From the IMG/VR virus record IMGVR_UViG_3300037104_000199, positions 1 to 53,148 of that record: DNA of 53,148 nt; one strand, written 5' to 3'. Under the pieces are notes generated by a model, which searched no databases, was not told the DNA's origin, and saw only the letters and a list, made by a program, of their open reading frames with translations. The translations under genes were made by a program, and so were the position numbers. Origin of the DNA: a virus (Duplodnaviria > Caudoviricetes). This document shows positions 5,518-40,312 of this stretch, one piece after another (the first letter of the stretch is position 1; the number at the start of each line of letters is the position of its first letter).

Positions 5518-5981
5518 TAAGCATCAATCTCCTTAATTTTATCTGTTTCTTGCGCCGAATTTAAGAAATCCCAATAAAGGGGACATTCAATCACATCAGC
5601 GCCTTCTTGGTACGAACAAATATAAGGAAGATAACACTTTAGTTTTCTTGCCTTAGGTTGTCTTATTTCCTTCCAGCATTTTCTTTGAAATTTACAAGGT
5701 ATAAATGTCTTAGTAGTAATTCGTCTTGGTTTAGATACATAGTTATCTACTAAAGCAATAACCCTAAATCCAGAATTAGTTGACACTACCTCCAAATTTT
5801 CTGGCGCATTATTTTTTGTATCACCATCAATATGCCTAACATCCTCATCCTGAGTCAGAGATCGTTCAAGTACCTTTTCCGCCACCAATATTTGTTCTGG
5901 TACATAGCCACCTCCTACTGCTCTTACATGACTCGGATCGTAAACAAGAACATAGTAGTCAATAATTCTCTCGCCTAACAT
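5517..5981 (-). CDS. degenerate HNH-like protein with Cys-rich C-terminus
   Basis: PEQILVAE..VRHIDGDTKNNAPENLEV resembles the EHR..VHHIDG..NN..NL HNH motif with His substitutions. Confidence 0.6.
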   Translation of the reverse strand: MLGERIIDYYVLVYDPSHVRAVGGGYVPEQILVAEKVLERSLTQDEDVRHIDGDTKNNAPENLEVVSTNSGFRVIALVDNYVSKPRRITTKTFIPCKFQRKCWKEIRQPKARKLKCYLPYICSYQEGADVIECPLYWDFLNSAQETDKIKEIDA

Positions 5982-12990: not shown

Positions 12991-13199
12991 AGTTCAATAC
13001 CGCGCGCCCTAAATAATTCAACAATTATAGGATCATCTAAATACCTATCAAGGGATTCAGATTCAGTATCCCAATCACCAGCTTCAAGCGCGTCAATAAG
13101 ATCACCTAAGACACTTCGCTTAATATCGTCACTTGCTTTGGCGGCAATAAGGCCGTCAGCAACTTTATCAAATATTTCTTCACCAGATGCCCATACCAC
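12975..13199 (-). CDS. hypothetical acidic protein
   Basis: AAGGAG RBS, overlaps neighbours. Confidence 0.55.
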   Translation of the reverse strand: MVWASGEEIFDKVADGLIAAKASDDIKRSVLGDLIDALEAGDWDTESESLDRYLDDPIIVELFRARGIELWEDE

Positions 13200-13450
13200 T
13201 AGTTACTCCTTTCGGGGGAGTGTAATTCCCCGCAGCTACAGTCGGGGCAATTTTCAATATCCCAGTTAGTGTCCCTAATAGGAGTCAGGGTATACCCGGC
13301 AGCAGTAAGGGAGTTTAACATAACTTCACCAGTACGACGGGGCGGATAATACATAGTGTCTATCCCTGGGCCATGATCATTAACATAAGCAACAACTGCC
13401 GCATGTTTGGCGCGTTCTAAGACCATAAACAAGTCTTCTAAAGTATTCAT
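13199..13450 (-). CDS. hypothetical protein
   Basis: GGAG RBS; CPDCSC. Confidence 0.55.
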   Translation of the reverse strand: MNTLEDLFMVLERAKHAAVVAYVNDHGPGIDTMYYPPRRTGEVMLNSLTAAGYTLTPIRDTNWDIENCPDCSCGELHSPERSN

Positions 13451-13477
13451 TTGCTACTCCACCGCTATAAAGTTATG

Positions 13478-13660
13478 TTAAATAAATCGTCCAATCAAAG
13501 CACTAATACCTAAGAAGGCTATAAACCCAATTAGGGAGACTACAAAAAGAATTGGACCAACACTTATAGCAAAAATAATACTTGCGACAAGGAAAATTAA
13601 AGCTGCTGAAAGAAATCCTGCCCCTGTGATAGTTCCGATTACCCAGTCACTTAACTCCAT
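13478..13660 (-). CDS. small membrane protein (2 TM)
   Basis: GAGGAG RBS; two hydrophobic stretches. Confidence 0.65.
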   Translation of the reverse strand: MELSDWVIGTITGAGFLSAALIFLVASIIFAISVGPILFVVSLIGFIAFLGISALIGRFI

Positions 13661-13725
13661 AATATACTCCTCTCTCTATACAAGGTCTAACGACCCGGCG
13701 CCCAACCTGAGCGCCTGTTAGTGTC

Positions 13726-13754
13726 AACATAACACAAGGACGACCCACTGTCAA
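13726..13754 (-). promoter_or_regulatory. sigma70-type promoter
   Basis: TTGACA-17 nt-TATGTT with extended TG on the minus strand. Confidence 0.6.
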
Positions 13755-13776
13755 GGACTTTCTTTGGCGTCCCTTA

Positions 13777-13811
13777 AACAAAAAAACTGACCCCCCAGTG
13801 AAGGGGGCCAG
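13777..13811 (-). terminator. intrinsic terminator
   Basis: CTGGCCCCC..GGGGGTCAG hairpin followed by a T7 run on the minus strand. Confidence 0.75.
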
Positions 13812-13827
13812 AAGGTAACCCAGACCC

Positions 13828-13893
13828 TTAGCGTCTAGGTATGTAATTTATGATAAGAATAACAATAATAACTACGATCAGTAGTTCAAGCAT
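13828..13893 (-). CDS. 21-aa hydrophobic micropeptide MLELLIVVIIVILIINYIPRR
   Basis: Hand-read; TAATG coupling to the upstream micropeptide. Confidence 0.55.
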   Translation of the reverse strand: MLELLIVVIIVILIINYIPRR

Positions 13894-13979
13894 TATCTGC
13901 GCCAGAAATGGGTTAGTACTAGATCAACTATCAATACAACTAGTATTGCTATGAGAAGGGTATTGTCAGTAAAATTCAT
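13893..13979 (-). CDS. 28-aa hydrophobic micropeptide MNFTDNTLLIAILVVLIVDLVLTHFWRR
   Basis: Hand-read; AAGGAGG RBS and its own promoter. Confidence 0.65.
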   Translation of the reverse strand: MNFTDNTLLIAILVVLIVDLVLTHFWRR

Positions 13980-14017
13980 TATGGTGACCTCCTTGCTCCA
14001 ACTTTAGGAACTTGTAT

Positions 14018-14046
14018 AGTCTACCACACTTATGAATAAATGTCAA
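14018..14046 (-). promoter_or_regulatory. sigma70-type promoter with extended -10
   Basis: TTGACA-17 nt-TAGACT with TGTGG before the -10. Confidence 0.75.
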
Positions 14047-14294
14047 GGGGTTTTTCTACCAGGAGCAATAAGCATTCCGGAGAATACAAGAACGAAAGAC
14101 AAGAAGGAAATTATTAGCATCTATATTGCCCCCTTTTCTACCAGAAGAATCTCTTCCTATACTATATATCCTACACCAAAGCGTCCTTTGTGTGGTTGCG
14201 GTAGGGTTCTGGTTGGGTAACAGAAAAGTTACAGATTGGTTTTCTAAAAAATCCTTAGAAAAACTGGAAAATACTTTCCTCGTAAATGTGTACA

Positions 14295-14323
14295 GTAACA
14301 GACGTCCGAATGAAAAAAACTAA
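14295..14323 (+). repeat. degenerate copy of the GTAACAG-N9-TGAAA element
   Basis: gtaacag acgtccgaa tgaaa aaaac taa. Confidence 0.55.
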
Positions 14324-14388
14324 GCCGGCGACTTATATATAATGGGGGGGGAGTTATACACTTTGGAATGTATAACTCCCCGAATTAT

Positions 14389-14691
14389 TTACCTCGTTTC
14401 GATGGGCGAGAGGACGCATCCAAGCTTGTCAGCTAAGGAGCCCGCGATGCGAGCCGTTATCGGGGCCTCGGCGTGCATCCTATCCTGGGCAAGCCACAGA
14501 CCCGAGACAATCAGGCTAATCTCGGCAGCTGTTAGGTAGCAAGCGAATTCGTACTCCCGCGCATGCGCAGTGGGGGTACCGCATGCAGGTAGCCGGGTGA
14601 CATGGTCGAGGCAATGGGGGCCATGCATAGGCCGATCTGGCGCGTCCTGTTCGGACGCGTAAATTCGGTCCAGTAGTGAGGTGGAGTCCAT
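14389..14691 (-). CDS. hypothetical protein (GC-rich island)
   Basis: AGGAGG RBS; GC-rich codon usage. Confidence 0.6.
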   Translation of the reverse strand: MDSTSLLDRIYASEQDAPDRPMHGPHCLDHVTRLPACGTPTAHAREYEFACYLTAAEISLIVSGLWLAQDRMHAEAPITARIAGSLADKLGCVLSPIETR

Positions 14692-14823
14692 GATCTAACC
14701 TCCTGCTATAAGGGCTGAGGTAGGGTCTAGAGCCTCAATTCTGGGCACGGGCGATTTCTGGGTTTGATTGTTGCGCGCCGATCCTATCGGCTGAGGTTAC
14801 TGATCGCTGGTCGCTGTAGCGTC

Positions 14824-15141
14824 CTAGACGGCCATAGCGGCGAGTAGGGCGTCTAGGTCATCTTGCGTCATACTCTTGACCTTTGCTCCTCGTGTTCCAC
14901 CCTCCACTATGATGGTGCGAGCGGCGAGGTTGACTCCTCGCAAGTCTGCCAGGGTCAACGGGATGGAGATTAGAGGTGCCTTGCCTGTTTCGACGTTGAC
15001 GGCGTTCTGCCGGACGACCTTGCCTTCGTCATCGCGGAAGGACGTTGCCTTGGCATTTGCAACAATGCCAGCAGCGCGAGAAGCAGCGGTAGCGCGGAGG
15101 GGACAGAGCCGGAAGTCAGAGGATCCAGTGAGAATAGCCAT
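14824..15141 (-). CDS. hypothetical protein (GC-rich island)
   Basis: GGAGG RBS; GC-rich codon usage. Confidence 0.6.
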   Translation of the reverse strand: MAILTGSSDFRLCPLRATAASRAAGIVANAKATSFRDDEGKVVRQNAVNVETGKAPLISIPLTLADLRGVNLAARTIIVEGGTRGAKVKSMTQDDLDALLAAMAV

Positions 15142-15567
15142 AGGAGATTCCTCCAGCCTATGCCCAAAATTGAGACTCTAGACTAGTGCCCTATACCGCG
15201 CGCGGGTACTGATTCCGACGAAGCGTAGGGGGCTATTCGACTTGTTAAGGTGCGCTGGGCCTATACGATCCGGCGCCGACCATTTCGGCGGACCGCGGAA
15301 ACGACTGGGACAAACATACACATAGACTCCGCCGAATGCAATACCTATTTTGAGGCGATTTTGGGCGGGCTTCCCAGCTGTAGCAGGCGTACAGCCCAAA
15401 ATCGCTCCAGGCGACCGAATCCAGAGATTTTGGGTGTACGTGCGTCTGGACAGGATGCGCGCCGTAGCGTGGCCCTACGGTCGTCATGTAGCGGTACCGC
15501 CGGCCGATCCACCGATCGGACACCCCACCGGCTGTAATGCCCCAGGACGATTCTGGGCGTCTCCTAC

Positions 15568-15627
15568 CCTCGGCCCATGCCGGGGCTGGCCGCGTTCCTG
15601 GCCCGCCGAAGCGTTCTCGACGAGTAG
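15568..15627 (+). pseudogene. C-terminal remnant of a DUF1778/TacA-like antitoxin
   Basis: Reads PRPMPGLAAFLARRSVLDE*; its TAG overlaps the GTG of the GNAT fragment, as in tacAT-type operons. Confidence 0.55.
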
Positions 15628-15893
15628 TGGGCCGCTACAGCCAGATCGAGCCGCTCGCGCCAACGCACCAGACCGACGCCTTCGATTGCGTCTCTGAGGC
15701 CCAATCCACGTGGTTGCGCCGCCACGGTCTGCAAGCTCATCGATCCGATACGTGCAAGGTGTACGTGGTCTGCCGGCGAGATGAACCCGCGGTGGCTGGT
15801 TACTACGCGCTGGCGGCCGGATCCGTAGGCCACGAGACGGCTCCGCCGCGCCCCAGTACCCTCCGGGAATTATCACCTATATGCAAGGAGTGA
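15627..15893 (+). pseudogene. truncated GNAT acetyltransferase toxin (TacT/AtaT family), N-terminal half
   Basis: IEPLAPTHQTDAFDC..WLRRHGLQ..KVYVV..VAGYYALAAGSV; similarity stops near 15853, before the acetyl-CoA-binding motif. Confidence 0.8.
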
Positions 15894-15946
15894 CATAAAG
15901 AAAACTTTATCCTTGCATTTATCTTTAATCTCTAGGTAACAGCAAC

Positions 15947-16378
15947 GTAACAGAAACTCAAATGAAAGACGGCTAGCATTATACTAATCATTTATTTATT
16001 TTGGTTAGTGTAAGTAACAGACTTTTATTTGAAAGACGGTTACGACTTTTGCGCGCCCAAAATGGGCTGACAATTCCCTATTCAATAATCCTAGTACAAC
16101 TATGCCCCAAAGGGGGGCATCATAAACATACAAATATCTTATTAACTATCTTTCTTTAGACTTTACAAGTAACAGAAATCAAAATGAAAGACGGCTAGGC
16201 GTAATTGAGTCTAAAGACTCCGTGCAAAATTCTTACTACCTAACCCCCGGCAAATCCCTATAACTAATTCCCTAGTATAACTATACCCCAAAAGGGGGCA
16301 AATAATACATGTACATAACTTATTAACTACATTTTCTTAGTTACTCTATGTAACAGAATTCAAAATGAAAGACGGTTA
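15947..16378 (+). repeat. four tandem GTAACAG-N9-TGAAAGACGGYTA elements (15947, 16014, 16169, 16350); the last two lie in longer related units
   Basis: Direct alignment; units also share CCTAGTAYAACTAT-CCCCAAA-GGGGGCA and CTTATTAACTA. Confidence 0.9.
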
Positions 16379-16594
16379 GCGTTTTATCTGTAAGTCAGCA
16401 GTATATATGGGTATAGGATTATCATCATTTATTTCAGGCGCGAATTGTACATAAACATATTTCCAATTATTATTACCACCAGATACACCTGTAAGAGTCC
16501 CTATACTACTAGGTACTAATTCACCCCCATAATTACTACCAATCCTATCTAGGATATTTACATCTTCCTTTATTCTTACAGTACCACCTATCAT
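16376..16594 (-). CDS. SH3/KOW-like miniprotein (array member)
   Basis: MIGGTVRIKE..SIGTL..YVQF..DLQIKR; paralog of 17761-17994. Confidence 0.7.
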   Translation of the reverse strand: MIGGTVRIKEDVNILDRIGSNYGGELVPSSIGTLTGVSGGNNNWKYVYVQFAPEINDDNPIPIYTADLQIKR

Positions 16595-16791
16595 TATGAC
16601 TTTCTCCTCATAACTTTTGCGCCCGAAAAAGAAATACAATAACAAGCGTTATCATGATCCATTCTTGCTTCAAATCCACAAGATATACCTACCATCATAA
16701 CTGTACCTACTTTATTTGCGGGGCAAGATTCATGAACACTAATAGTAGTAGTAATAATCCTATCACCAACTCTAAGCTAAGAAGGACGCAT
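16594..16791 (-). pseudogene. SH3/KOW-like miniprotein with in-frame TAG at codon 5
   Basis: MRPS*LRVGDRIITT..KVGTV..FSGAKVMRRKS; paralog of 18017-18238 and 19211-19426. Confidence 0.7.
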
Positions 16792-16987
16792 TATTATCCA
16801 CCTTATACTGTAGTAACCTAAGATAGATATAATCAGTAATTTCGGGCGCAAATTTCACACCAGCATAATGATATACAGGATTAGGGTCCCTTCTAATAAT
16901 AGTTTCAATTATACCTATAGTACCTCTCATTGAAGTTACCTCATACGTATCTTTAACTCTAACAGTCATGCCAATTTCAGGGCGCAT
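16772..16987 (-). CDS. SH3/KOW-like miniprotein (array member)
   Basis: MRPEIGMTVRVKD..GTIGII..VKF..LLQYK. Confidence 0.7.
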   Translation of the reverse strand: MRPEIGMTVRVKDTYEVTSMRGTIGIIETIIRRDPNPVYHYAGVKFAPEITDYIYLRLLQYKVDNNASFLA

Positions 16988-17208
16988 TATTTACTCCTAA
17001 GTACTTGAAAGTCATATGAAGAGAAACACCATCTATAGAGATATGCACTTCCTACAGGTTCCTCAAAAGTCGCCGCAAGAAAGTGTGGTCGTATTCCCCA
17101 ACCACCAATATTACAAGGTATCTCACTAACAGTACCTATACGCCCTCGAAGAAAATCCTTAGAATAAGTATCTTTGATTCTTATCTTGTCCCCAATTTTG
17201 ATTTCCAT
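16987..17208 (-). CDS. SH3/KOW-like miniprotein (array member)
   Basis: GGAGG RBS before MEIKIGDKIRIKD..GRIGTV..DFQVLR. Confidence 0.7.
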   Translation of the reverse strand: MEIKIGDKIRIKDTYSKDFLRGRIGTVSEIPCNIGGWGIRPHFLAATFEEPVGSAYLYRWCFSSYDFQVLRSK

Positions 17209-17240
17209 TTGTCCCTCCTGACTACCAATGTAAAGAATCT

Positions 17241-17277
17241 TTGACATTAAGTAAAGTAAACTTGACATTAAGTAAAT
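17241..17277 (+). repeat. short tandem repeat TTGACATTAAGTAAA x2
   Basis: Seen directly, with a third degenerate copy; upstream of the 17208 RBS. Confidence 0.6.
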
Positions 17278-17426
17278 TAAGCTCGACAACTACCTTAATG
17301 ACCTAAAAAGGTTAGATACTAACAAATGTATTTACTCTCTATGTGTTTTCTCTTATATAGAATATGTACATCTTTGTTGCCCCCTTTTCTAGAAACTCTA
17401 TAGAACACTTAGTAGAGAAACCCTTG

Positions 17427-17633
17427 CTACTCTTCAGAAGGGGTATTCTCCTTTAGTAAGAGTAATTCCGATGGGTCGAAGATACCACGCGTTCCATCGG
17501 AATCAAATCTAATACTATAGAATGAAGTACTACTAGATGTAATTGTACCAATACCCTTAGCAACATAATAAGAGAAGTATATGCCCTCCTTTACTTTCAC
17601 TTTCCTACCTAGATACTTATCATTAGGTTTCAT
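17427..17633 (-). CDS. SH3/KOW-like miniprotein (array member)
   Basis: LGRKVKVKE..GIGTI..YSIRFD..FDPSELLL. Confidence 0.7.
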   Translation of the reverse strand: MKPNDKYLGRKVKVKEGIYFSYYVAKGIGTITSSSTSFYSIRFDSDGTRGIFDPSELLLLKENTPSEE

Positions 17634-17705
17634 TTAGTTACACTCCTTACTATTACCTGTAATATTGATGCCCCAAAAATGGGCAAGTATTACTTACCTA
17701 TATCT

Positions 17706-17763
17706 TATTAACTGTATTTCTTTACTAGACTTAAGTAACAGAGCATTTATTGAAAGACGATTA
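17706..17763 (+). repeat. TATTAAC-N22-GTAACAG-N9-TGAAAGACGA element
   Basis: Same spacing as the copies at 16140 and 16321. Confidence 0.85.
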
Positions 17764-17994
17764 ATGCTTTATTTGTAAATCATGTACAAATACAGCGATA
17801 TTATTATGAGGTAGGTCACTAAATTTTACATATATAACAGGAGCCCTGCTATGGTTAGTATACATACTAGGGCATCTTACAATAGTGCCTATGGACCCAT
17901 TATACAGTGGACACACACCTATACGTTCTCTGATAAGTACGCCCTCTTTTATCCTTACTGTATCCCCTACTCTTAATTCACTGTATTTCATCAT
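17761..17994 (-). CDS. SH3/KOW-like miniprotein (array member)
   Basis: LRVGDTVRIKE..SIGTI..YVKF..DLQIKH. Confidence 0.72.
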   Translation of the reverse strand: MMKYSELRVGDTVRIKEGVLIRERIGVCPLYNGSIGTIVRCPSMYTNHSRAPVIYVKFSDLPHNNIAVFVHDLQIKH

Positions 17995-18016
17995 GCTCCT
18001 TCGCAGGTATTACTAT

Positions 18017-18238
18017 TTACCTCTTTCTGACTTTTGCGCCCGAAAATTCCACACAAGTAGGACTAGAACCAGTGTTTAGACTATCAAAAGTAGCATCAAA
18101 TAAAGTCCACCTGCCACTTCTACAAGGAACATACATAACAGTACCAATAGAGCCTATAGGTACAGTCTCTAAAGTAATGTAGGGAAGTCTTTTAGTAGTG
18201 ATAATAGTATCATCTACATTTAGATCACTTGGACGCAT
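18017..18238 (-). CDS. SH3/KOW-like miniprotein (array member)
   Basis: MRPSDLNVDDTIITT..SIGTV..FSGAKVRKR. Confidence 0.7.
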   Translation of the reverse strand: MRPSDLNVDDTIITTKRLPYITLETVPIGSIGTVMYVPCRSGRWTLFDATFDSLNTGSSPTCVEFSGAKVRKR

Positions 18239-18461
18239 TTGTTGCCCCATTTCTTTGAACTTGTAATTCTCTAGCATTAAAAGTCTTACTATCAGTATAC
18301 CCAGCCAGTAGAACACTAATAGGGTTTGACATCCAATAGTCACTACTAATCTCAGTAATCTTACCCAAGAGTCCTACCACTAAGCTAGTGTCTGTGTACA
18401 GACCACTACTGCTATGTATACAGGGCTTTACTCTCACCCTCATTCCTACCTCTGGAACCAT
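18225..18461 (-). CDS. SH3/KOW-like miniprotein (array member)
   Basis: AGGAGG RBS; MVPEVGMRVRVK..GLLGKI..FNARELQ; paralog of 19655-19873. Confidence 0.72.
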   Translation of the reverse strand: MVPEVGMRVRVKPCIHSSSGLYTDTSLVVGLLGKITEISSDYWMSNPISVLLAGYTDSKTFNARELQVQRNGATNASK

Positions 18462-18507
18462 TGTAACCTCCTGTAATTATTGCGCCCTAATTAGTATACC
18501 TATAAAC

Positions 18508-18565
18508 TATTAACTGTAAATTCTCAGTGTTGTTAAGTAACAGAACCTATTCTGAAACACGACTA
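18508..18565 (+). repeat. TATTAAC-N22-GTAACAG-N9-TGAAACACGA element
   Basis: Same fixed spacing. Confidence 0.8.
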
Positions 18566-18753
18566 GGCTTGAAAACTAGATGACGCTTAAAGTGTACATA
18601 CATTTTACCATCAGGTTTTTTTAGGTAGACTAAGTTAGAACCTGGGGCAGAACCAAAAGACTCTATTACACCTTCTGTATTTATAGGGCAGTAGCTTTCA
18701 TTATAACCTAGACCACCTTTTACTTTTACCCTATCCCCAATCCTTGGTTCCAT
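18547..18753 (-). CDS. SH3/KOW-like miniprotein (array member)
   Basis: MEPRIGDRVKVK..TEGVI..HL. Confidence 0.68.
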   Translation of the reverse strand: MEPRIGDRVKVKGGLGYNESYCPINTEGVIESFGSAPGSNLVYLKKPDGKMYVHFKRHLVFKPSRVSE

Positions 18754-18981
18754 TTAACTTCCCCGCAATCTTTCTAGGCTATCTGCCCTAAGATCAATCA
18801 TTTCCGAATAACCTTCGGATTGAATCCAGTAGAATACTGTAGAGTCCTGCCTCGTGTGTTCATGACCAAGCTTCTCTTTACAGTTTTGTACTATTACACC
18901 TTTAGTATGTGCTTCTAATTGGGGGTACCTACCATACAGAGTATGCTTATTTCTTACTATTGTTCCATTAGGAATTATCAT
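18754..18981 (-). CDS. SH3/KOW-like miniprotein (array member)
   Basis: IPNGTIVRNK..TKGVI..YWI..DSLE. Confidence 0.62.
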   Translation of the reverse strand: MIIPNGTIVRNKHTLYGRYPQLEAHTKGVIVQNCKEKLGHEHTRQDSTVFYWIQSEGYSEMIDLRADSLERLRGS

Positions 18982-19214
18982 CTTTGGTGCCCCCTAAATT
19001 GTAGTTCTTTTGCGCAATAATAACCAGATAATCCATTATTATCCCAAGTTACTCTAATAGGCCATTGCCTATGCCAAGGATACTCAAAACCTGGGGAAGT
19101 GTAATCTACTAGAAATCCAGTAATAGTACCTATACTACCTACTACACATTTTCTATAAGGTCTTAATTTATTAGGATAAGAAAGCCTTACCTTCATACCT
19201 AATTCGGGTGTCAT
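18978..19214 (-). CDS. SH3/KOW-like miniprotein (array member)
   Basis: MTPELGMKVRL..SIGTI..VTWDN..YCAKELQF. Confidence 0.72.
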   Translation of the reverse strand: MTPELGMKVRLSYPNKLRPYRKCVVGSIGTITGFLVDYTSPGFEYPWHRQWPIRVTWDNNGLSGYYCAKELQFRGHQR

Positions 19215-19426
19215 TTAGCTCTCTTAACTTTTGCGCCACTAAAGAATACACAAGAGTTCATTTTAGAAAAATCCGTCATAGCTTGAAAACAACCATTTCT
19301 ATCAGAACAACAATTACAGGTTACTAGGGAATCAACTGTACCTTCCATACCCACAGGAACTGAGTTAAATACAGACGCTCCTGTAGTTATAATTCTATCG
19401 CCATCTTTTAGTTCAGAAGGACGCAT
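19211..19426 (-). CDS. SH3/KOW-like miniprotein (array member)
   Basis: MRPSELKDGDRIITT..MEGTV..FSGAKVKR. Confidence 0.72.
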   Translation of the reverse strand: MRPSELKDGDRIITTGASVFNSVPVGMEGTVDSLVTCNCCSDRNGCFQAMTDFSKMNSCVFFSGAKVKRAK

Positions 19427-19662
19427 TACTTACACCTTTTCTTAATCTGAAGTCTCCATTGATAAACGCTATCAACTACACCATTATCAAACTGTACAGT
19501 ACATAGGAAATTTCCTACAGTAGTTTCATTAAGCCTCTCAGTATAGGATTCAGTTGGAACAACAGTTCCTTCAGTAAATTTGGGGATTCTACAATACTCA
19601 TTATCTGAGTATCTAGTCTTTATTCTTACTCTGGTACCTACTGGAATTGTATTCTTAGACAT
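19426..19662 (-). CDS. SH3/KOW-like miniprotein (array member)
   Basis: IPVGTRVRIK..TEGTV..VQFDNG..RLQI. Confidence 0.7.
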   Translation of the reverse strand: MSKNTIPVGTRVRIKTRYSDNEYCRIPKFTEGTVVPTESYTERLNETTVGNFLCTVQFDNGVVDSVYQWRLQIKKRCK

Positions 19663-19873
19663 TTTCGCGCCGAAATTGTAATTCATCTAAACGAAAGCCC
19701 TTAATGTCGAAGAAACCTTCTAATTGCACACTTATACCCTCGCTGTTAAAGTAGTAATCTAAACTAGAAATAACCCCCACTAATCCAATAGATAGACTGT
19801 GATCAGCATAGCGACCATCAACGCTATGAGTACATTTCTTAAGTCTAACACTCATACCAACTTTTGGTACCAT
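19655..19873 (-). CDS. SH3/KOW-like miniprotein (array member)
   Basis: MVPKVGMSVRLK..GLVGVI..FRLDELQF. Confidence 0.7.
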   Translation of the reverse strand: MVPKVGMSVRLKKCTHSVDGRYADHSLSIGLVGVISSLDYYFNSEGISVQLEGFFDIKGFRLDELQFRRENV

Positions 19874-19875
19874 AA

Positions 19876-20103
19876 TCAACCTCTCTTTATCCAAAGGAAT
19901 TTCTTCTCTACACACTGCCCCCTAAATCCTTCTGGGACCCCATCAAAATGAATATACAAACCTTTTCCGAATACATGTCTTGGGTCACTAAGAGGGTTTA
20001 TACTGAAGGGGCATTGTAAACTTACAATATCCCCTTCAGTACCAGCCTTATAGGTGAATAAATCCTCTTTAAGTTTTACCCTATCACCTAGGTTAATGGT
20101 CAT
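19876..20103 (-). CDS. SH3/KOW-like miniprotein (array member)
   Basis: MTINLGDRVKLK..TEGDI..IHFDG..FL. Confidence 0.68.
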   Translation of the reverse strand: MTINLGDRVKLKEDLFTYKAGTEGDIVSLQCPFSINPLSDPRHVFGKGLYIHFDGVPEGFRGQCVEKKFLWIKRG

Positions 20104-20104
20104 T

Positions 20105-20437
20105 TTAGTAAATGTCCGGGGTAATGTCCTTAGGGCCAAGAGTAACCTTAATGCCACCCATATCGTCCTCATAATCCTCTTCGTCGCCTTCACTAAAATC
20201 AACAAATTCCTTGTAACCAAATCCCTGAGCAGTAATAGTATCGCGAAGACCAAACTCAATCTTAGTTCGGGTACCCAAAACCTCTCCATCAGCTTCTACA
20301 AGGTAGTACGCAACCTTACTTAGAATAAACTGCTCCATTGGAATCTTAGAAGTTACGATGTTATCTCTAACATACTCATCGACCATCTCAAAAACCATCG
20401 GGGGAAAAGTAACCGTAATACGAACCATCTTAGACAT
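20105..20437 (-). CDS. hypothetical acidic protein, possible ribbon-helix-helix N-terminus
   Basis: AAGGAG RBS; RITVTFPPMVFEMVDEY pattern. Confidence 0.55.
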   Translation of the reverse strand: MSKMVRITVTFPPMVFEMVDEYVRDNIVTSKIPMEQFILSKVAYYLVEADGEVLGTRTKIEFGLRDTITAQGFGYKEFVDFSEGDEEDYEDDMGGIKVTLGPKDITPDIY

Positions 20438-20438
20438 T

Positions 20439-20861
20439 TTATTGCTCCTTTCTATACATTTTTAGCATTTCAGTAATAAAACTACTATACATATCTTCTT
20501 GCCACTTTGGAAACTCGGCATCCTCAGTAAAGCACTCTTTTACACTGCTATAGAAACAATCAAAAACCTCTATACTGTAGTTAGCATAATTCTCATACTC
20601 AGTAGCCAACTTTCGCATCCAAGGTCGCCACCTATATTTGAGAATAATATCCGTTGAATGGTAGTATTTCCTATGGCAAGATTGGCAAGAGGTTGTTCCA
20701 TACTTGCCCCACAAATCATGGTAGTTGAATAGGCACCTAACTGGCTGCAAGAAACTGTACACTCTATACACTATCTTGGGCAGTTCATAACCCTGCATAA
20801 AATAATATAGCCCCTTTCCCCGCCTAGTAGCTGTACATTTCTTTAGAAAATGGGGCATCAT
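20439..20861 (-). CDS. hypothetical protein
   Basis: AGGAGG RBS. Confidence 0.6.
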   Translation of the reverse strand: MMPHFLKKCTATRRGKGLYYFMQGYELPKIVYRVYSFLQPVRCLFNYHDLWGKYGTTSCQSCHRKYYHSTDIILKYRWRPWMRKLATEYENYANYSIEVFDCFYSSVKECFTEDAEFPKWQEDMYSSFITEMLKMYRKEQ

Positions 20862-20891
20862 AAGTCCTCCTATATATAGCTACCTATAAAC

Positions 20892-20949
20892 TATTAATTA
20901 ATTTTCTTAGACTGTTTTATGTAACAGCATCAACTATGAAAGACGGTTA
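20892..20949 (+). repeat. TATTAAT-N22-GTAACAG-N9-TGAAAGACGG element
   Basis: Same fixed spacing. Confidence 0.85.
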
Positions 20950-20977
20950 CGCTGGAGCATACTTAAATGGCTGCCAC

Positions 20978-21205
20978 CTATTCCCCGCCTTCCTTATCTT
21001 GTAGAATCCAATTTACTTTTGACTTATTTAGGATGTTTTCTTGCTGATTTCTTTGAGCCCACAAAAAGTGCTCATCACAATACAGTACTGACCATACACC
21101 TATCTGCATATTGTGCAGAACTACTACATGTGTAGCATCCCTAGAACACTTGTTCTGTAATTCCCAAGACTCTGTAACATACAGATCACATTGAGGAATA
21201 GCCAC
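20978..21205 (-). CDS. hypothetical protein
   Basis: Coupled ORF; C..C..CDEH pattern. Confidence 0.5.
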   Translation of the reverse strand: MAIPQCDLYVTESWELQNKCSRDATHVVVLHNMQIGVWSVLYCDEHFLWAQRNQQENILNKSKVNWILQDKEGGE

Positions 21206-21414
21206 TACTTCTCACGCAAAAATTGTAAGACTCTGGGGCTGTAATTATAGTGTGCGTCTGGGTAATCATCCCATAAAACAAACCATGTTTGGTCCCCAGC
21301 ATAATTGAAACCAGGCTTTTCTATAATACCTAAAACACCATTCTTACTAGGCTCCGCATAATCATAAGGGTTTGGGGCATTTAATCTAACCCGCATTCCA
21401 ACTTCAGGTTTCAT
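21205..21414 (-). CDS. SH3/KOW-like miniprotein (array member)
   Basis: AGGAGG RBS; MKPEVGMRVRL..VLGII..VLWDD..VLQF. Confidence 0.72.
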   Translation of the reverse strand: MKPEVGMRVRLNAPNPYDYAEPSKNGVLGIIEKPGFNYAGDQTWFVLWDDYPDAHYNYSPRVLQFLREK

Positions 21415-21562
21415 TTAGCTCCTCCTACTAAACTGTAAACGGTTTACAAAAACTACAGGATAAAGATGAGAACCTGCTGTGGATTCTCTATCCATCAAAA
21501 CTTTTACTATATAAGTCTCATACATAGGTAAGGTGGAACTAGTTGTAGTTTAGTAGTTTTAT

Positions 21563-21599
21563 CTAGGGCACTATATCAGGAGGTAATATAGTGCCCTAG
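21563..21599. terminator. 14-bp hairpin (terminator or processing site)
   Basis: CTAGGGCACTATAT / ATATAGTGCCCTAG; no clear U-tract. Confidence 0.5.
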
Positions 21600-21608
21600 C
21601 GACAAATA

Positions 21609-21794
21609 CTAACTGATTGTACTACGATTAATCTTTGGGGGCGCAATAACTTCAATCTGATTAGCTGCAATATGCACACAGGACTCAATAATAGTCCCTG
21701 TCCAATCACAAGCCTTACAAGTATAAATAGGAGCCTTAAGATAAGACTTCTGGGTAGACCAAGTACCAATGCGAGAAACAACGTGTGTAATCAT
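21609..21794 (-). CDS. small C2H2-like hypothetical protein
   Basis: GGAG RBS; YTCKACDW....H. Confidence 0.5.
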   Translation of the reverse strand: MITHVVSRIGTWSTQKSYLKAPIYTCKACDWTGTIIESCVHIAANQIEVIAPPKINRSTIS

Positions 21795-21808
21795 CTAACT
21801 ATCTCCAA

Positions 21809-22126
21809 CTAAAAGTGGTGGACCTTTTCAGAATCATCGGGCAATAAAGAGTCTTCCTCATCAAAATCATCAAAATCATCAAATCCTACTGAGTCATAAT
21901 CTTCATCCTCCATTCGATCCTCAGCAGCAAGAGTTAATATTGCGTCCAAAGCTGCTGTATAAAAGGCATCCTTGATATCATCTTCATTATCATTGAGGAA
22001 CTTTTCAGGCTCCTCTAGATTAGAAACAAATTCCTCCCTAACATCAGCCATAGATAACTCAATATGCTTATAGAAGATTTCATATAGCTGATCATAGATC
22101 ACTGGGTCTTTTGGTTTATATGCCAT
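21809..22126 (-). CDS. highly acidic hypothetical protein
   Basis: GAGG RBS; D/E-rich. Confidence 0.6.
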   Translation of the reverse strand: MAYKPKDPVIYDQLYEIFYKHIELSMADVREEFVSNLEEPEKFLNDNEDDIKDAFYTAALDAILTLAAEDRMEDEDYDSVGFDDFDDFDEEDSLLPDDSEKVHHF

Positions 22127-22150
22127 TACATTTCCTCTAATAAGAAAAAT

Positions 22151-22230
22151 TGGTACCCCTTGTGAGAATCAGACTCACCTTTGCTACGGATATAAGCCGT
22201 CATCCAACCATCAGTTAGAACATAAGGGGC
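22151..22230 (-). tRNA. tRNA-Ile(UAU)-like, atypical
   Basis: Acceptor GCCCCTT/AAGGGGT-A-CCA; anticodon arm ACGG-CT TAT AT-CCGT; T-arm GTGAG/CTCAC with non-canonical loop TCTGATT. Confidence 0.7.
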
Positions 22231-22421
22231 ACAAAGTAAACTACCAGGTATCACTACCTAAATGAGCAACACTCATAACACGATAAACCTTACTGCGCCA
22301 AAGAAGTCTACTAAACTTTTCTTGTCTCCCCCAAGCCTTTGCACAATAATTCTGCATAGCAAGATTACTGAGCATCTTCTGATAGGAGTCAAGCTTCTTA
22401 GTATTACTGCGTAAAGGCTTA

Positions 22422-23252
22422 CTAAGTAGCAACATTATCCCAACCTACCTTTCCGCGCATATTAACACCATAAGACTCTCCCTTATCAAGATCAAACTGA
22501 AGATCAGTCCACCTGAGAATTTCAATATCTTTTGCTGCTTCATCGCGCAAAGTTTGTGGGACTTCTTTACCCTCATCACGAAGCTTCTCAATAAGAGCAT
22601 AATTCTTATCCACACTAAGGGTGTACTTTCGGTACATCATAAGTGCGGAAAGAATCCACATAGCAGATGCCATATTAGCAGTAATAAGCTGCTCTCCACC
22701 CTCTAATGCAGCAATTGCTGCACAAGTCATGGTAGCTCTATCTGCTCCCTTATTTGAAATTTCTTGATGAAGGAAAGTAAGGACAGGGGTAATATTTTCC
22801 CCGCCCTTTCTCACCCACAATTGACAAGAACCTGTACTAACCTCATTGCCTCCATTAATAACTACAGCGTTATCAAGTGTCAAGCAATGAGACTGAATAA
22901 GAGCCCTAACTGGATAATTATCTACACCAATAAGGACAGTACATCCATCAGTAATAAGCTGATCAATATTGTCCTTACCAAGGTATTCATTGACGGGAAA
23001 AACCTTGTTAGTTTCACTATACCGACTTGCAGAAGCTACGGCCTTATTTGCCTTAATAGCTGACTCATCATATAGCTGCCTATCAAGATTCTTTTCCTCA
23101 ACATCATCACCATCAACAAGAAGCAATTCCCAAGTATTTTGGGCATTACGATAATGGGTTGTAAGGAAGCGGATTAATGGGTCAAGCAAGAAAGACCCGG
23201 TGCCTCCAATTCCCACAAGAACATATTTGTCATTTTCCATATTGCTTTCCAA
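22422..23252 (-). CDS. ThiF/E1-like ubiquitin-activating enzyme
   Basis: VGIGGTGS, LVDGDDVEEKNLDRQ, KA, GVDN..R, GGN, and TCA..EQ...N (candidate catalytic Cys). Confidence 0.9.
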   Translation of the reverse strand: MESNMENDKYVLVGIGGTGSFLLDPLIRFLTTHYRNAQNTWELLLVDGDDVEEKNLDRQLYDESAIKANKAVASASRYSETNKVFPVNEYLGKDNIDQLITDGCTVLIGVDNYPVRALIQSHCLTLDNAVVINGGNEVSTGSCQLWVRKGGENITPVLTFLHQEISNKGADRATMTCAAIAALEGGEQLITANMASAMWILSALMMYRKYTLSVDKNYALIEKLRDEGKEVPQTLRDEAAKDIEILRWTDLQFDLDKGESYGVNMRGKVGWDNVAT

Positions 23253-23253
23253 A

Positions 23254-24474
23254 TTACTCTCCTATGTAATCCTCAACCTCATCCACAGGCTGATTAAGCA
23301 TTGTAGACAATGTTGAAGTTGTTAGAACCTTATCCTTTTCAGAATCTGCTGAGGGATCAATAACTTCCCCCACCATAAAGCTAATAACATAGCCTGCCTT
23401 TTCGCACTCCTTATTAAGCTTCTTAGCAAGGAGTTCAATAGCTTCAGGCCAGTATTCAGGCTTAATCTTTCCGGTACGGACGGACTCTAACCATTTCTTA
23501 GGAACACTTATACCTAACTGCGAAGAGTAAGCACTACCTGACCCTGCAGTATAACCATCATAAGAATCCGGCCAGGAATCTTCATTCCCACCTTGCCAAC
23601 CCTTATACCACTTATTTGCGCGGGACTTATCCAAACCCCAATTCTGATTTGTAGTACTCTTTACAAATTGACCAACTGTTTGAGCAGTAGGCTTCTTAAC
23701 TAGGGAGTACCACCATTCAGGAATTCCAACATCTTCAAGTCCCACAACATCAGCAACCTCTTCAATCTTGTAATTGAAGTTACTTCCGCCAAGGGAAATC
23801 ATTGATGCAAATTCCATCTGCTTATAGTCTGTAACATGCCCCACAGTAATGTGTAGACCATCAAAAGTCTTAGCATCATGTGTATCTGTTCCAGAATGGA
23901 ATGCAGAAAAGACTGGATGGGAATGGACTGATCCTACTAAACTATACCCTGAAGGAATCTTAGTTGCATCAAAAGTATAATCGACACTTGCTCCCCCACA
24001 AATCTGCACAGGAACAAATACCTTGTATTCCTTAGTAGTAGTGTTAAAGAGAAGCATAACCTCTGCTTCCGTCTGGATTCTAGAATAGACGCCCCTAAAA
24101 AAGGAGACAATCTGATTCATGATAGCCAGGGGGATAATCGGGGCATCTTCATAATTATGCCAGAAAAGTCCACCCTTATGCTTAGGATCAACTGTACCTA
24201 AAACAGTGGGATGTTCCTTTGTGGGCATAATTGCTCTACCAAAAGCAAAATGCTTGTAGTAATACCAACCCTGCGCAGTAGGCACAAAATAAGGGCCATT
24301 ATCTGGCTGAGGAAGATCATAAAAGTCCCCATTGAACTTGGTATAAATATCAAGCAATCCTGGGGCTTCAATTACTGCTGCCTCTACAACTTCTAACACA
24401 GTTTCAATTTCCACAGGAAGATGAGTAGCTTCCCCAACAATTTCAACCTTAGGAAGGGTTTTCTTTTTGGTCAT
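23254..24474 (-). CDS. JAB/MPN+ metalloisopeptidase (prokaryotic JAB)
   Basis: TEA..VPVQ..ASVDY..GSVHSHPVFSAFHSGTDTHD..GLHITVG. Confidence 0.9.
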   Translation of the reverse strand: MTKKKTLPKVEIVGEATHLPVEIETVLEVVEAAVIEAPGLLDIYTKFNGDFYDLPQPDNGPYFVPTAQGWYYYKHFAFGRAIMPTKEHPTVLGTVDPKHKGGLFWHNYEDAPIIPLAIMNQIVSFFRGVYSRIQTEAEVMLLFNTTTKEYKVFVPVQICGGASVDYTFDATKIPSGYSLVGSVHSHPVFSAFHSGTDTHDAKTFDGLHITVGHVTDYKQMEFASMISLGGSNFNYKIEEVADVVGLEDVGIPEWWYSLVKKPTAQTVGQFVKSTTNQNWGLDKSRANKWYKGWQGGNEDSWPDSYDGYTAGSGSAYSSQLGISVPKKWLESVRTGKIKPEYWPEAIELLAKKLNKECEKAGYVISFMVGEVIDPSADSEKDKVLTTSTLSTMLNQPVDEVEDYIGE

Positions 24475-27303: not shown

Positions 27304-27558
27304 TTACTCCAATCGGTAGGTATTACCCTTACGAGTAATACTGCCATAAAACTTATGACCATCATCAACAACAAAAGATATCTTGCGCCCATCAGGCATA
27401 TCAGTTACTGCACCATCAAATTCAGTTTCATATTCTGCCACTAGACAAACACAATCAGGATAAGTATTAAGCATCTTCTTAATCTCAGCCTTATTCCTGG
27501 GTGTAAGACCATTTACAGTAATTCCGTACAACCTAAAACTCCTTAATTCCAAATGCAC
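27304..27558 (-). CDS. hypothetical protein
   Basis: ORF in operon; true start may be downstream. Confidence 0.5.
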   Translation of the reverse strand: MHLELRSFRLYGITVNGLTPRNKAEIKKMLNTYPDCVCLVAEYETEFDGAVTDMPDGRKISFVVDDGHKFYGSITRKGNTYRLE

Positions 27559-28144
27559 TTATATTTTCTGGGAACAATTCCCTAAGCTTGAATGTAAAGA
27601 AGGATTCCATACCAATCCCCATACCAAAGAAGTGTGAAGTTGCATGGTTAATTCCTAACCAAACATCCTCTAAATCTTGCACCCAATTTTTGGCAAATTC
27701 AAAGCTCCAACGTCTAGACATACAAAGGTATGCAATAAGCACACACACTGATCGACTATTACCTGCCCCGCATTTCACTAAAATTTTGGGGCTACTAAAC
27801 CCTAAACTAACCAGTTGTGACTTACCTATAATTTTGGCCGCATCAGATGCTTGTATATCTAGAGCCTTTTCCCACTCAGAAAGTACACCAAAAGCCTCTT
27901 CTAGTATTCCTTCAAAATCTGGGTTGAATTCTGAGTCAAACATCCTTATGAAATGAAAGTTAATTAAATTCTTTGACATAGCTTCTGTAACGGAAGCTAT
28001 TCCTAAACTCGAATCCTCATTTGTGAATTGAAGATCAAGCACAGCAAAGATGTTATTATCCTTTAGAAATTTAGCATCCTTCTCTATATCCTGCCATCCA
28101 CCACTAAGGGCAAATCTATCGCCAATACATCTAAAGTTAAGCAT
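27533..28144 (-). CDS. dual-specificity/tyrosine phosphatase-like protein
   Basis: IFAVLDL; ILVKCGAGNSRS (CX5R loop)..LIAYL. Confidence 0.82.
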   Translation of the reverse strand: MLNFRCIGDRFALSGGWQDIEKDAKFLKDNNIFAVLDLQFTNEDSSLGIASVTEAMSKNLINFHFIRMFDSEFNPDFEGILEEAFGVLSEWEKALDIQASDAAKIIGKSQLVSLGFSSPKILVKCGAGNSRSVCVLIAYLCMSRRWSFEFAKNWVQDLEDVWLGINHATSHFFGMGIGMESFFTFKLRELFPENISAFGIKEF

Positions 28145-31010: not shown

Positions 31011-31562
31011 TTAATCAACTATAGTACCTGTAATAAGTTGCCCATCCTCTAGCTTAATGGGGACCTTTTTTGAAAGACTAGGGCACACTGGAGGAATTTC
31101 CTCAAATATAGCCCTTCCTTTGTAAATAACCTCCTGAGAAGGATTCAGAGATTTTAACTTAATCTCCTCACTATTAAAACGCATACCAAAGAAAGATCCA
31201 GCCCTTACCCTAAGTGCTCCAGAAATCCGAGCATCACCATAAATCCGAGCATCACCATAAATCCGAGCATTGCCAGAAATCCGAGCATTGCCATAAATCC
31301 GAGCATTGCCATAAATCCGAGCATTGCCAGAAATCTGGGCATCACCAGAAATCCGAGCATTGCCATAAATCCGAGCATTGCCAGAAATCTGGGCATCACC
31401 ATAAACCCAAGCATTGCCTTCTTGGGAAAGATTACTTTCCTTCTCTACAAACCCTCCCCTAGCTCCTTTACTAATGCTCCCAAAAGTAACAAGGGCTTCT
31501 ACCCTAAATAAGGTCTTTCCCTCAGTAACCTTCGTTTCACTAGTTAGCTTAAACTTAGTCAA
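31011..31562 (-). CDS. hexapeptide-repeat (left-handed beta-helix) phage protein
   Basis: GGFVEKESNLSQEGNAWVYG followed by G[ND]A[RQ]I[YS] repeats. Confidence 0.85.
   Translation of the reverse strand: MTKFKLTSETKVTEGKTLFRVEALVTFGSISKGARGGFVEKESNLSQEGNAWVYGDAQISGNARIYGNARISGDAQISGNARIYGNARIYGNARISGNARIYGDARIYGDARISGALRVRAGSFFGMRFNSEEIKLKSLNPSQEVIYKGRAIFEEIPPVCPSLSKKVPIKLEDGQLITGTIVD
31217..31417 (-). repeat. 18-bp coding tandem repeat
   Basis: About 11 units such as GGCAATGCTCGGATTTAT. Confidence 0.9.
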
Positions 31563-34566: not shown

Positions 34567-34762
34567 TTCGTACACAACTATCTCAGCTAAAAATAAGCTT
34601 TGGGATGTCCTTACAGGAACTGCACGCCTCCTCAGTGATGAGGGGGCAATTTATTGGTGTGGGGATTGTTCAGAGTACCATGTTAATTACTGTAATGAAA
34701 CCCTAGATAAATATGAGATAGTAGAACTTAGCACCCTTATTAAAGACTATGGTAATGAGTAA
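34553..34762 (+). CDS. small hypothetical protein
   Basis: AAGGAG RBS; YWCGDCSEYH. Confidence 0.55.
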   Translation: MVNSNSYTTISAKNKLWDVLTGTARLLSDEGAIYWCGDCSEYHVNYCNETLDKYEIVELSTLIKDYGNE

Positions 34763-34924: not shown

Positions 34925-34953
34925 GTAACAGCAACCAAAATGAAAGGCGGTTT
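34925..34953 (+). repeat. isolated GTAACAG-N9-TGAAAGGCGG element
   Basis: gtaacag caaccaaaa tgaaa ggcgg. Confidence 0.7.
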
Positions 34954-39823: not shown

Positions 39824-40312
39824 TTATATCCTTTCCCATTTTTGGATGGCTGAATCTATCTCCAAATCGCTTAAAATGTAGGGTTCTGGTCTACCCATTT
39901 TGCGCGCAATCATTTTGAACACACGCTCGTCTGAATATTCGAAGCCTAAGTATTTCTGTATCTTTATATAAGCTTTACCTAATTTTTCGGATACTCTTCT
40001 CTGGTCCACCCACAGGTCATTTTCGTCATACAAGAGAACAGCTATATCCTGGCGCGAAAGTCTACCGTCCATCTTTACATACTCTAGCATAAGTACTTCC
40101 ATATCTGAAAGCTTACCTTCTTTATGCAAGACACTTATAGCTTTCTCTATATCCATCTTTGCTGTTAGATCAACATTAACGGTAGGTGTGGCGTCGTAAC
40201 CTCTTACTGCCCCCAAGCTTACGGCTCGATAAGGAGAGTAAGATGACAGACCTTCCGTTAGCAAACGTATTAAATGGGCGCTTCTCTTTCTCAATATTAA
40301 GTTCCCCCACAA
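39824..40312 (-). CDS. sigma-region-4-like HTH transcription regulator
   Basis: MDIEKAI..LSDME...L..SRQDIA..VSEKL.KAY.KI..YL pattern. Confidence 0.55.
   Translation of the reverse strand: MWGNLILRKRSAHLIRLLTEGLSSYSPYRAVSLGAVRGYDATPTVNVDLTAKMDIEKAISVLHKEGKLSDMEVLMLEYVKMDGRLSRQDIAVLLYDENDLWVDQRRVSEKLGKAYIKIQKYLGFEYSDERVFKMIARKMGRPEPYILSDLEIDSAIQKWERI

Follow-up and report, generated by a model that had tools for sequence, protein, structure and literature searches.

A three-box module with fixed spacing at gene-cassette boundaries of a peat phage: a putative factor-dependent promoter and recombination junction

In this study we analysed the whole of the IMG/VR virus record IMGVR_UViG_3300037104_000199 (hereafter the window; 53,148 bp, linear, with a completeness estimate of 44%), whose source is a novel, uncultured lytic phage of peat that is not recognisable as a T4 relative, and we followed up a repeated element, GTAACAG-N9-TGAAA, that an earlier note had picked out from its sequence. 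The element is part of a module of about 70 bp that lies between cassettes of small minus-strand genes and in the sense of those genes, with two spacers of fixed length, with boxes kept by selection and with break points between strains at its edges. We propose, with moderate confidence, that it is a regulatory module of cassette boundaries, likely a factor-dependent promoter, which would serve as a recombination junction as well. Judged from the sequence, promoter activity appears to be its most likely function, and a role as a junction for the gain, loss and swap of cassettes is supported by the comparison with related sequences.

The three boxes and their copies

Over the whole record, GTAACAG-N9-TGAAA was found nine times on the plus strand and never on the minus strand, compared with a mean of 0.02 and a maximum of 1 in 100 dinucleotide shuffles, and the reversed pattern, run as a control, gave no match (0/0). 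When all 6-mer/gap/5-mer pairs of the window were enumerated, this pair ranked first with its nine copies, which are named here after their positions:

14295, 15947, 16014, 16169, 16350, 17735, 18537, 20921 and 34925, plus strand: copies of GTAACAG-N9-TGAAA

Eight of the nine lie within 14.3-21.0 kb. A position weight matrix (PWM) was built from seven copies and scanned over the window; it gave 37-46 bits for those seven and 22.8 bits for copy 34925, the best of 20 shuffles reaching 16.2 bits, and no further site exceeded that value. Copy 14295 scored below 12 bits because its A box (see below) is degenerate. The nine copies, single orientation and 9-base spacer listed by the earlier note are thus borne out, and the whole-genome motif scan that it had proposed added no site.

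As the majority of the genes in the window lie on the minus strand, the module is to be read in reverse complement. In this sense it consists of a TAR triplet, one base, the A box CCGTCTTTCA (written (C)CGTCTTTCA in minus sense), a 9-nt spacer (N9), the B box CTGTTAC, a 22-nt spacer (N22) and the C box RTTAATARKWTAT, 3′ of which follow a 5′ untranslated region (5′-UTR), a Shine-Dalgarno sequence (SD) and the ATG of the next gene. A longer box, TGAAAGACGG, is exact in five of the nine copies (15947, 16014, 16169, 16350 and 20921), carries one mismatch in 17735 and 34925 and two in 18537, and is degenerate in 14295. CTGTTAC followed by TTAATA 20-24 nt on occurs five times on the minus strand and not at all on the plus strand; N22 before RTTAATA is exact in all five, as the earlier note had stated for TATTAAY, and N9 is exact in all nine copies. 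N22 holds a loose TAAGAAA block, shifted by 1 nt in one copy with the total still 22, and the C box extends as AGGTA in the three copies that precede a gene.

All eight copies of the array region fall between coding sequences or share bases with a stop codon, with TAR one base 5′ of the A box in seven of them. Two points of detail in the earlier note agree with this anatomy: the terminal TTA is the stop codon of an array gene in two copies (the genes ending at 17761 and 16376), and three copies (20921, 18537 and 17735) stand just before a minus-strand ribosome-binding site, each with an SD and an ATG downstream. Five copies are complete (20921, 18537, 17735, 16350 and 16169), and the single copies are as follows:

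20880..20950, minus strand: copy 20921, complete (TAA, A, N9, B, N22, C), upstream of gene 20439-20861 with its AGGAGG and ATG
18496..18566, minus strand: copy 18537, complete, with the A-box variant TCGTGTTTCA, upstream of gene 18225-18461 with its AGGAGG and ATG; the upstream open reading frame (ORF) 18547-18753 passes through the A box and terminates in N9
17694..17764, minus strand: copy 17735, complete, its TAA being the stop codon of gene 17761-17994; between it and gene 17427-17633, which has an SD and an ATG, lies a 5′-UTR that contains a small GC hairpin
16309..16379, minus strand: copy 16350 (E4), complete, its TAA being the stop codon of gene 16376-16594 (or 16376-16645); no gene downstream; a 34-nt block, CCTAACCGTC...CTGTTACATA, is identical in the cousin contig L100 (see below)
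16128..16198, minus strand: copy 16169 (E3), complete, in a stretch without genes; absent from L100; strain break points at the B-box edge (16169) and within the A box
16014..16043, minus strand: copy 16014 (E2), partial (TAA, A, N9, B), with a degenerate C box ATGATTAGTATAAT; preceded by a remnant of a paralogue 3′ end; lacking in L100 and in variants X3 and X4 (see below)
15936..15976, minus strand: copy 15947 (E1), partial (TAG, A, N9, B, gttg and a second B box), without a C box; it heads a GC-rich cassette, and its 26-bp A-N9-B unit (26-mer) and duplicated B box are identical in L100
14295..14320, minus strand: copy 14295 (E0), degenerate (TTTTTTTCA, N9, CTGTTAC), with an orthologue in L100; it follows the hairpin 14348-14381 that closes the GC-rich cassette, and an extra CTGTTAC lies at 14217-14223
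34925..34950, minus strand: copy 34925, an outlier (CCGCCTTTCA, N9, CTGTTAC) without C box or TAR

Four of these copies lie in the stretch at 15.9-16.4 kb, which has no genes; pieces of former gene starts and gene ends are left between the copies. Copy 34925 lies between the plus-strand genes 34749-34928 and 34953-35156, for which its TAA and AGGCGG are stop codon and SD, and its membership in the module family is uncertain.

The genes that the modules separate form the following array:

16376..21414, minus strand: array of about 15 small paralogous genes with a few unrelated small genes and a pseudogene, split into operons by the modules

Gene junctions within it are mostly tight or overlapping, and the modules fill the few long gaps. 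The paralogues (68-78 aa as aligned) have 11-37% protein identity to the first of them, and a structure model of the family (pLDDT 87.7) is an SH3/Tudor-like barrel, whose top Foldseek matches were PetP, Tudor and SH3 domains with TM scores of 0.6-0.7, none of them at E ≤ 0.001. No homologues outside the lineage were found, since all eight matches were the window itself or contigs of 622 and 2137 bp. The pseudogene (16597-16791, minus strand) belongs to the MRPS...FSGAKV sub-family and is interrupted by a stop at its fifth codon. The L100 orthologue (1069-1281; 62% protein identity) is intact. One long intergenic gap, 17209-17426, has no module. A direct repeat with a 21-bp unit (17241-17288, 2.3 copies) lies within this gap, which is conserved in part in L100 (176-430) and may be another regulatory region.

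Conservation, strain break points and the GC-rich cassette

Among the eight array copies, the pairwise identity is 84% in the A box, 100% in the B box and 37% in N9, and among the five complete copies it is 83% in the C box and 49% in N22. The description of the spacers as free, given by the earlier note, needs a correction, as N9 is partly shared, with four copies reading TTT(T)GRWTT in minus sense. A scan of metagenome_contigs with the 17-base A+B pattern gave 84 stretches, of which 80 were compared with the window; among those 80, one alone, the contig L100 (3,137 bp), is related to it and the other 79 are unrelated chance matches. The L100 paralogues have 39-62% protein identity to their counterparts in the window. 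For copies 16350 and 15947, the orthologous 26-mers of L100 match those of the window at every base, also in N9, and sit in perfect blocks of 34 and about 40 nt, with flanks that are about 45-55% identical as estimated by eye from the alignments; the orthologue of copy 14295 has two or three changes in N9. As the boxes are intact while the spacers are at 37-49% and the L100 genes at 39-62% identity, they appear to be maintained by selection, exchanged between lineages, or both, and the identity of N9 between orthologues could reflect a recent exchange.

We considered whether the boxes might be functionless leftovers of tandem gene duplication or gene conversion, since paralogous genes accompany the modules, copies 17735 and 16350 have similar last codons before the A box, and remnants of pseudogenes are interspersed among the copies. 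Neutral decay would affect the whole unit evenly, yet boxes at 100% adjoin spacers at 37-49% and genes at 11-37% protein identity, and the boxes are intact in the cousin phage; we regard this explanation as extremely unlikely.

In viral_contigs the exact 17-base A+B pattern had a single match, in a tail-fibre-like ORF, which was taken as chance, and the 22-base A+B+C pattern had 0 matches in metagenome_contigs. In five relatives (G001-G005), found via the RNA ligase at 38-59% identity, the pattern with ≤2 mismatches was not commoner than the reversed control; the paralogue family was not found there, bar one weak match (E 0.006), nor was the sigma region-4-like protein described below, in a search without a positive control. 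No relatives were found in viral_contigs via the JAB-like protein, one paralogue or the protein of the GC-rich cassette. One of the five, the distant relative G002 (a whole 160-kb record), has an abundant palindromic repeat of its own, CCATGAAA-N6-TTTCATGG, whose core word pair occurs 25-29 times per strand; this repeat differs in kind from the module, and the module is absent from G002.

In order to compare strains, contigs (not reads) of four peat runs, X1-X4, were examined over 13000-22500; the comparison draws on 40 of 166 substitutions, 12 of 27 indels and 30 of 58 pieces. In X3, similarity to the window ends at 15972, where the 26-mer of copy 15947 has its final base, and restarts at 16169, the first base of copy 16169, so that the 196 bases between, including copy 16014, are missing or replaced. 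An X4 contig follows the window up to position 15976, beyond which it has the sequence found after copy 16169; this makes a hybrid copy with a 222-bp deletion and a crossover within 17 shared bases. In X2, 37 unlike letters adjoin 16169, and another X2 contig matches the window across 16169. L100 agrees with this picture: there, E4 is followed after 53 nt by E1, copies 16169 and 16014 are lacking, and E4 stands behind a different gene than in the window. The comparison with related sequences for indels ending at the element, which the earlier note had proposed, thus found three strain rearrangements besides L100. Among the pieces listed, break points away from modules were seen at 13981, 14399/14606, 15550/15857, 15568 (twice), 15594, 18043, 19616, 20048 and 21392. 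The loose ends at 18043 and 20048 in X4 carry the same letters, which suggests that about 2 kb of the array (about eight genes) were swapped for a short different stretch in that strain.

These junctions suggest how the array might be reshuffled. Flanking every array cassette, the module would be a shared sequence where recombination could join unrelated cassettes, and such events would yield deletions, replacements, half-modules and stacked boxes; we infer that the exchange would be homologous rather than site-specific. A GC-rich stretch lies between copies 15947 and 14295:

14392..15870, no strand assigned: GC-rich mosaic cassette of about 1.5 kb, with 52-70% GC compared with about 40% in the phage
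14824-15141 and 14389-14691, minus strand: cassette genes with SDs
15627-15851, plus strand: GNAT acetyltransferase fragment, the first 75 of 179 aa, broken off at the cassette edge

The GNAT fragment, which a homology search recognised and Pfam did not, has an identity of 99% with a metagenomic protein and of 89% with a protein from a fen Chloroflexi metagenome-assembled genome (MAG). As only 15568-15851 of the cassette matches the DNA of this MAG, the cassette is a mosaic, and the Chloroflexi link may hint at a donor or a host. Contigs of X1, X2 and X3 bridge the GC-rich stretch to the phage flanks, indicating that it is not an assembly chimera. The X3 allele of the cassette is about 10% diverged, and the X3 phage flanks differ at 2/419 and 7/313 bases. 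In L100 this place is likewise taken by a GC-rich cassette, which shares gene 14824-15141 (76% protein identity) and has no DNA match to the GNAT piece; this gene has three homologues only, all on small contigs. The foreign DNA is joined about 75 nt (right) and about 70 nt (left) from the 26-mers and not at the 26-mers themselves.

The recombination site shuffling gene modules that the earlier note had envisaged, on the pattern of the PeSL elements of T4-type phages, is supported as a junction, with the X2-X4 and L100 breaks at 26-mer edges. It is unlikely, in our view, that the 26-mer is a dedicated att-like site of a phage enzyme, serving integron-like capture and exchange of cassettes in a lytic phage, with the regulatory look being secondary. 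This would account for haplotype similarity that starts and stops exactly at the outer edges of the 26-mer (15972 in X3, 16169 in X3 and X2, the A-box edge of E1 in L100), for 26-mers identical down to N9 in phages whose proteins are 39-62% identical, and for the extra B boxes beside a module-bracketed foreign cassette with its bacterial GNAT fragment. However, PHROGs, Pfam and NCBIfam revealed no integrase, serine recombinase or transposase among the window proteins (the record being 44% complete), there are no inverted repeats and no attC-like hairpin, and the distance of 70-75 nt at which the foreign DNA is joined speaks against cutting at the 26-mer. Moreover, the X4 hybrid is the outcome expected of plain homologous exchange within 17 shared bases, for which the UvsX-like recombinase, RuvB-like and endonuclease VII genes of the phage would suffice; the window encodes two endonuclease VII genes, several HNH endonucleases and two tRNAs, along with a DNA polymerase, a primase, a ribonucleotide reductase, the UvsX-like and RuvB-like proteins, a DnaB-like helicase and an RNA ligase. 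In its full form, with the 26-bp A-N9-B as a true recombination site, an integron analogue that captures, stacks and swaps cassettes including foreign high-GC DNA, we find the idea quite improbable.

The putative promoter, its candidate factor and competing readings

We propose that the module acts as a phage-specific boundary of transcription units. The C box would give a -10-like TAnnnT and the start region, and a -35 hexamer is absent. With TAnnnT taken as the -10, the centre of the B box falls near -43 and that of the A box near -60, and both boxes would be docking sites for a phage factor that recruits or re-targets the host RNA polymerase. Upstream boxes without a -35 are the layout of activator-dependent phage promoters. 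In six copies TAnnnT is found 28-33 nt past the B box (TAAGAT, TAAGAT, TAAGTT, TAGTTT, TAGTTT and TAGTAT). The suggestion of a phage promoter or activator site, made by the earlier note, gains from the intergenic and co-oriented position at operon heads, the fixed spacing and this TAnnnT; promoter activity itself we infer.

No sigma-70 hexamer pair was found at conserved columns of the module. A sigma-70 consensus scan gave copy-specific matches only (18520-18493 and 16301-16274), with a regional total of 25 compared with 23.7 expected. Canonical promoters were not found in the array; a family of the form TTGACA-N16-18-TAnnnT, mostly with TGTG or TG right before the -10, occurs only elsewhere in the window and is probably an early promoter class using the host polymerase:

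6595 (plus), 13754 (minus), 14046 (minus), 34341 (plus), 40383 (minus), 46753 (minus) and 51799 (minus): canonical promoters, on both strands, at operon heads

The candidate for the factor that would bind the A and B boxes is encoded downstream of one of these promoters, TTGACA-N17-TATAAT at 40383, and would itself be expressed early:

39824..40312, minus strand: candidate trans-acting factor of 162 aa, with a sigma region-4-like helix-turn-helix modelled at residues ~44-126

In a wide search of its model with VIA-align, at least 20 of the top 25 matches were sigma-factor chains, mostly region 4, with Z scores of 6.1-9.1. They included sigma-H (3mzy, Z 9.1) and an ECF (extracytoplasmic function) sigma-L (Z 7.8, root-mean-square deviation 2.4 over 72 residues), and sigma-E region 4 on -35 DNA scored Z 7.1. 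The earlier note had already named this protein as a helix-turn-helix protein worth a pulldown; such a fold is suggested by the model, which is weak, and Pfam gave no match. No match to the sigma region 2 profile PF04542 was found in the window, and the profile PF00940 had none in five records, the control genomes being equally without a match. We regard the protein as a candidate binder and no more.

Several observations weigh against the promoter and junction roles proposed here. As to the factor, a VIA-align Z below 8 possibly reflects a common helical arrangement; the pLDDT of the model is 57.5 overall and 65-89 over residues 51-122, with residues 1-45 at low confidence; the protein has only seven homologues; Foldseek gave nothing at E ≤ 0.001; and no Pfam, PHROG or NCBIfam model matches it. 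As to the module, no RNA run is among the runs listed for its region; copy 34925, if real, would be antisense to its neighbouring genes; the identity of N9 in two orthologous pairs is not predicted by a pure two-box protein site; and all three strain break points, taken from contigs, fall in one module-dense stretch of 250 bp. Four further points concern the promoter directly. There is no sigma-70 -35, and TAnnnT is weak and possibly incidental in an AT-rich stretch; copy 16350, which follows a gene and precedes none in the window as in L100, is yet perfectly kept in both phages, with 34 identical nt; A-N9-B stands without a C box in three or four copies (16014, with its degenerate C box, 15947 and 14295); and the A box adjoins the stop codon, being one base past TAR in seven of eight copies, with a real stop codon in two. 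For these last four, a function that closes the upstream unit is at least as good an explanation as a promoter.

Such an end-of-unit signal, in which A-N9-B would terminate or block transcription without a hairpin, or control the processing or stability of the RNA, and the C box would be a separate neighbouring promoter, has in our view a low but appreciable probability. It would also be in line with the N9 kept between orthologues and with PeSLs, which likewise join a terminator and a promoter (PMC2839356). It is at odds with the lack of any hairpin or U-run, the scan for intrinsic terminators being empty at the modules, and with RNAalifold, which predicted 0 pairs in the five 71-nt copies; Rfam recognised only the two tRNAs in the window. 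In addition, the strict N22 suggests that B and C are read together, and copy 15947 has no upstream gene in either phage.

The earlier note had also thought of an antisense promoter of ECF-sigma type on the plus strand (GTAAC ... CG), from which RNAs would run against the 3′ ends of array genes. Indeed, the nine copies share the plus orientation, including copy 34925 amid plus-strand genes, GTAAC and TGAAA(G/C) resemble the -35 words of ECF sigma factors, and the phage is predicted to encode the sigma region-4-like protein. On the plus strand, however, the letters read GTAAC-N16-GACGG, without a CGT-type -10 word 16-17 nt on, nothing is conserved 17 nt past TGAAAG, the window has no detected sigma region 2, and stop codon, C box, SD and ATG fit the minus direction only. 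This suggestion found no support, and we consider it very unlikely.

Other known signals were compared and rejected. A boxA/nut-like reading rests on about six bases in agreement with the TCTTT core, and no boxB is present; a plus-strand mini-ORF, MKDG*, has no SD, and its ATG is found in only four of nine copies; IHF sites, Ter sites, the T7 class II terminator (ATCTGTT), sigma-54 promoters and Bacteroidetes -7/-33 promoters were rejected after comparison by eye with consensus sequences. A literature search on the box words found no phage promoter paper.

Relation to PeSLs and other systems, and genome context

PeSLs (promoter-early stem-loops) are cassettes of T4-type phages (Arbiol et al., 2010, PMC2839356; Comeau et al., 2014, PMC4122927). 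They have been shown to be active as promoters and terminators and to form mini-circles, and passive homologous exchange has been proposed for them. They are repeated intergenic modules of about 70-100 bp that span from an upstream stop codon to the next SD or start codon, cluster where small orphan genes form a hyperplastic region and are tied to insertions, deletions and replacements between close relatives, with 'degraded PeSLs' and mis-spaced duplicated boxes near indels (PMC4122927). Each of these traits has its counterpart here: TAR in seven of eight array copies and an SD with ATG in three; eight of nine copies at 14.3-21.0 kb in a region whose gene family is restricted to the lineage; indels or replacements of relatives ending at 15972, 15976 and 16169 (twice), with L100 agreeing; and half-copies and doubled B boxes. 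The module differs in having no sigma-70 -35/-10 pair with a spacing of about 17 nt and three discrete boxes with fixed N9 and N22 instead, in having no stem-loop (no consensus pairs; a small GC hairpin past the C box in three copies only), and in belonging to a phage that is not recognisable as a T4 relative.

In the arrangement proposed here, with an upstream factor box and TAnnnT and no -35, the module also resembles PmSLs (promoter-middle stem-loops, described for Vibrio phage nt-1 in PMC4122927) and T4 MotA-dependent promoters. It contains no TGCTT, its boxes would lie near -43 and -60 and not near -30, and neither a MotA nor an AsiA homologue was detected in the window, where the candidate factor is sigma region-4-like. 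T4 middle promoters depend on MotA, an early-made phage factor, through the Mot box TGCTT near -30.

With integrons, the module shares short conserved sites in one orientation that bracket promoter-poor, unrelated cassettes, one of them foreign DNA. In integron attC sites, imperfect inverted repeats (R″/L″ with L′/R′) let the single strand fold, and the cognate enzyme is a tyrosine recombinase; the A and B boxes are not mutually complementary and show no consensus pairing, no integrase was found among the scanned ORFs of this 44% complete record, and the junctions fit plain homologous exchange. Since position, region, indels and half-copies are shared with PeSLs, and a sigma-70 promoter, a stem-loop and a Mot box are lacking, we class the module as a variant related to PeSL/PmSL and not as a member.

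The phage itself is remote from known ones. Its DNA polymerase has at most 33% identity to any of 50,697 phage records, the module region has no DNA match in these records by megablast or blastn, and the runs that contain this region are peat metagenomes.

Further features were noted in the window. Directly upstream of the array, 22422-24474 (minus strand) holds adjacent genes for a ThiF-like (E1-like) and a JAB-domain protein, which may be a ubiquitin-like conjugation or deconjugation pair, and a Fic/DOC-domain protein (32063-32557) and a dual-specificity-phosphatase-like protein (27533-28144, both minus strand) are encoded amid accessory genes. An 18-bp tandem repeat of 11 copies at 31219-31418, within gene 31011-31562, codes for hexapeptide/YdcK beta-solenoid repeats and is an ordinary coding repeat. 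PHROG families annotated as 'terminase large subunit' also match residues ~190-580 of the DnaB-like helicase (47787-50138, 783 aa), which may reflect an intein-like insert. Free-standing HNH endonuclease genes lie amid the replication genes (1757-2227, 5517-5981, 42909-43574 and 47382-47777).

To our knowledge, T4-like phages are the only ones for which mobile regulatory cassettes of the PeSL type have been described, and those cassettes rely on ordinary sigma-70 promoters and hairpins. The unrelated peat phage studied here follows the same genome logic via a different signal, made of three boxes at fixed spacing, without a -35 and without a hairpin. If the boxes are a factor-dependent promoter, they would represent a new class of phage promoter, with a sigma region-4-like protein as candidate factor. 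The comparisons between strains and with the cousin contig indicate that these conserved, putative expression signals double as seams for the shuffling of accessory genes, and seams of this kind help to explain the turnover of orphan-gene arrays in environmental phages.

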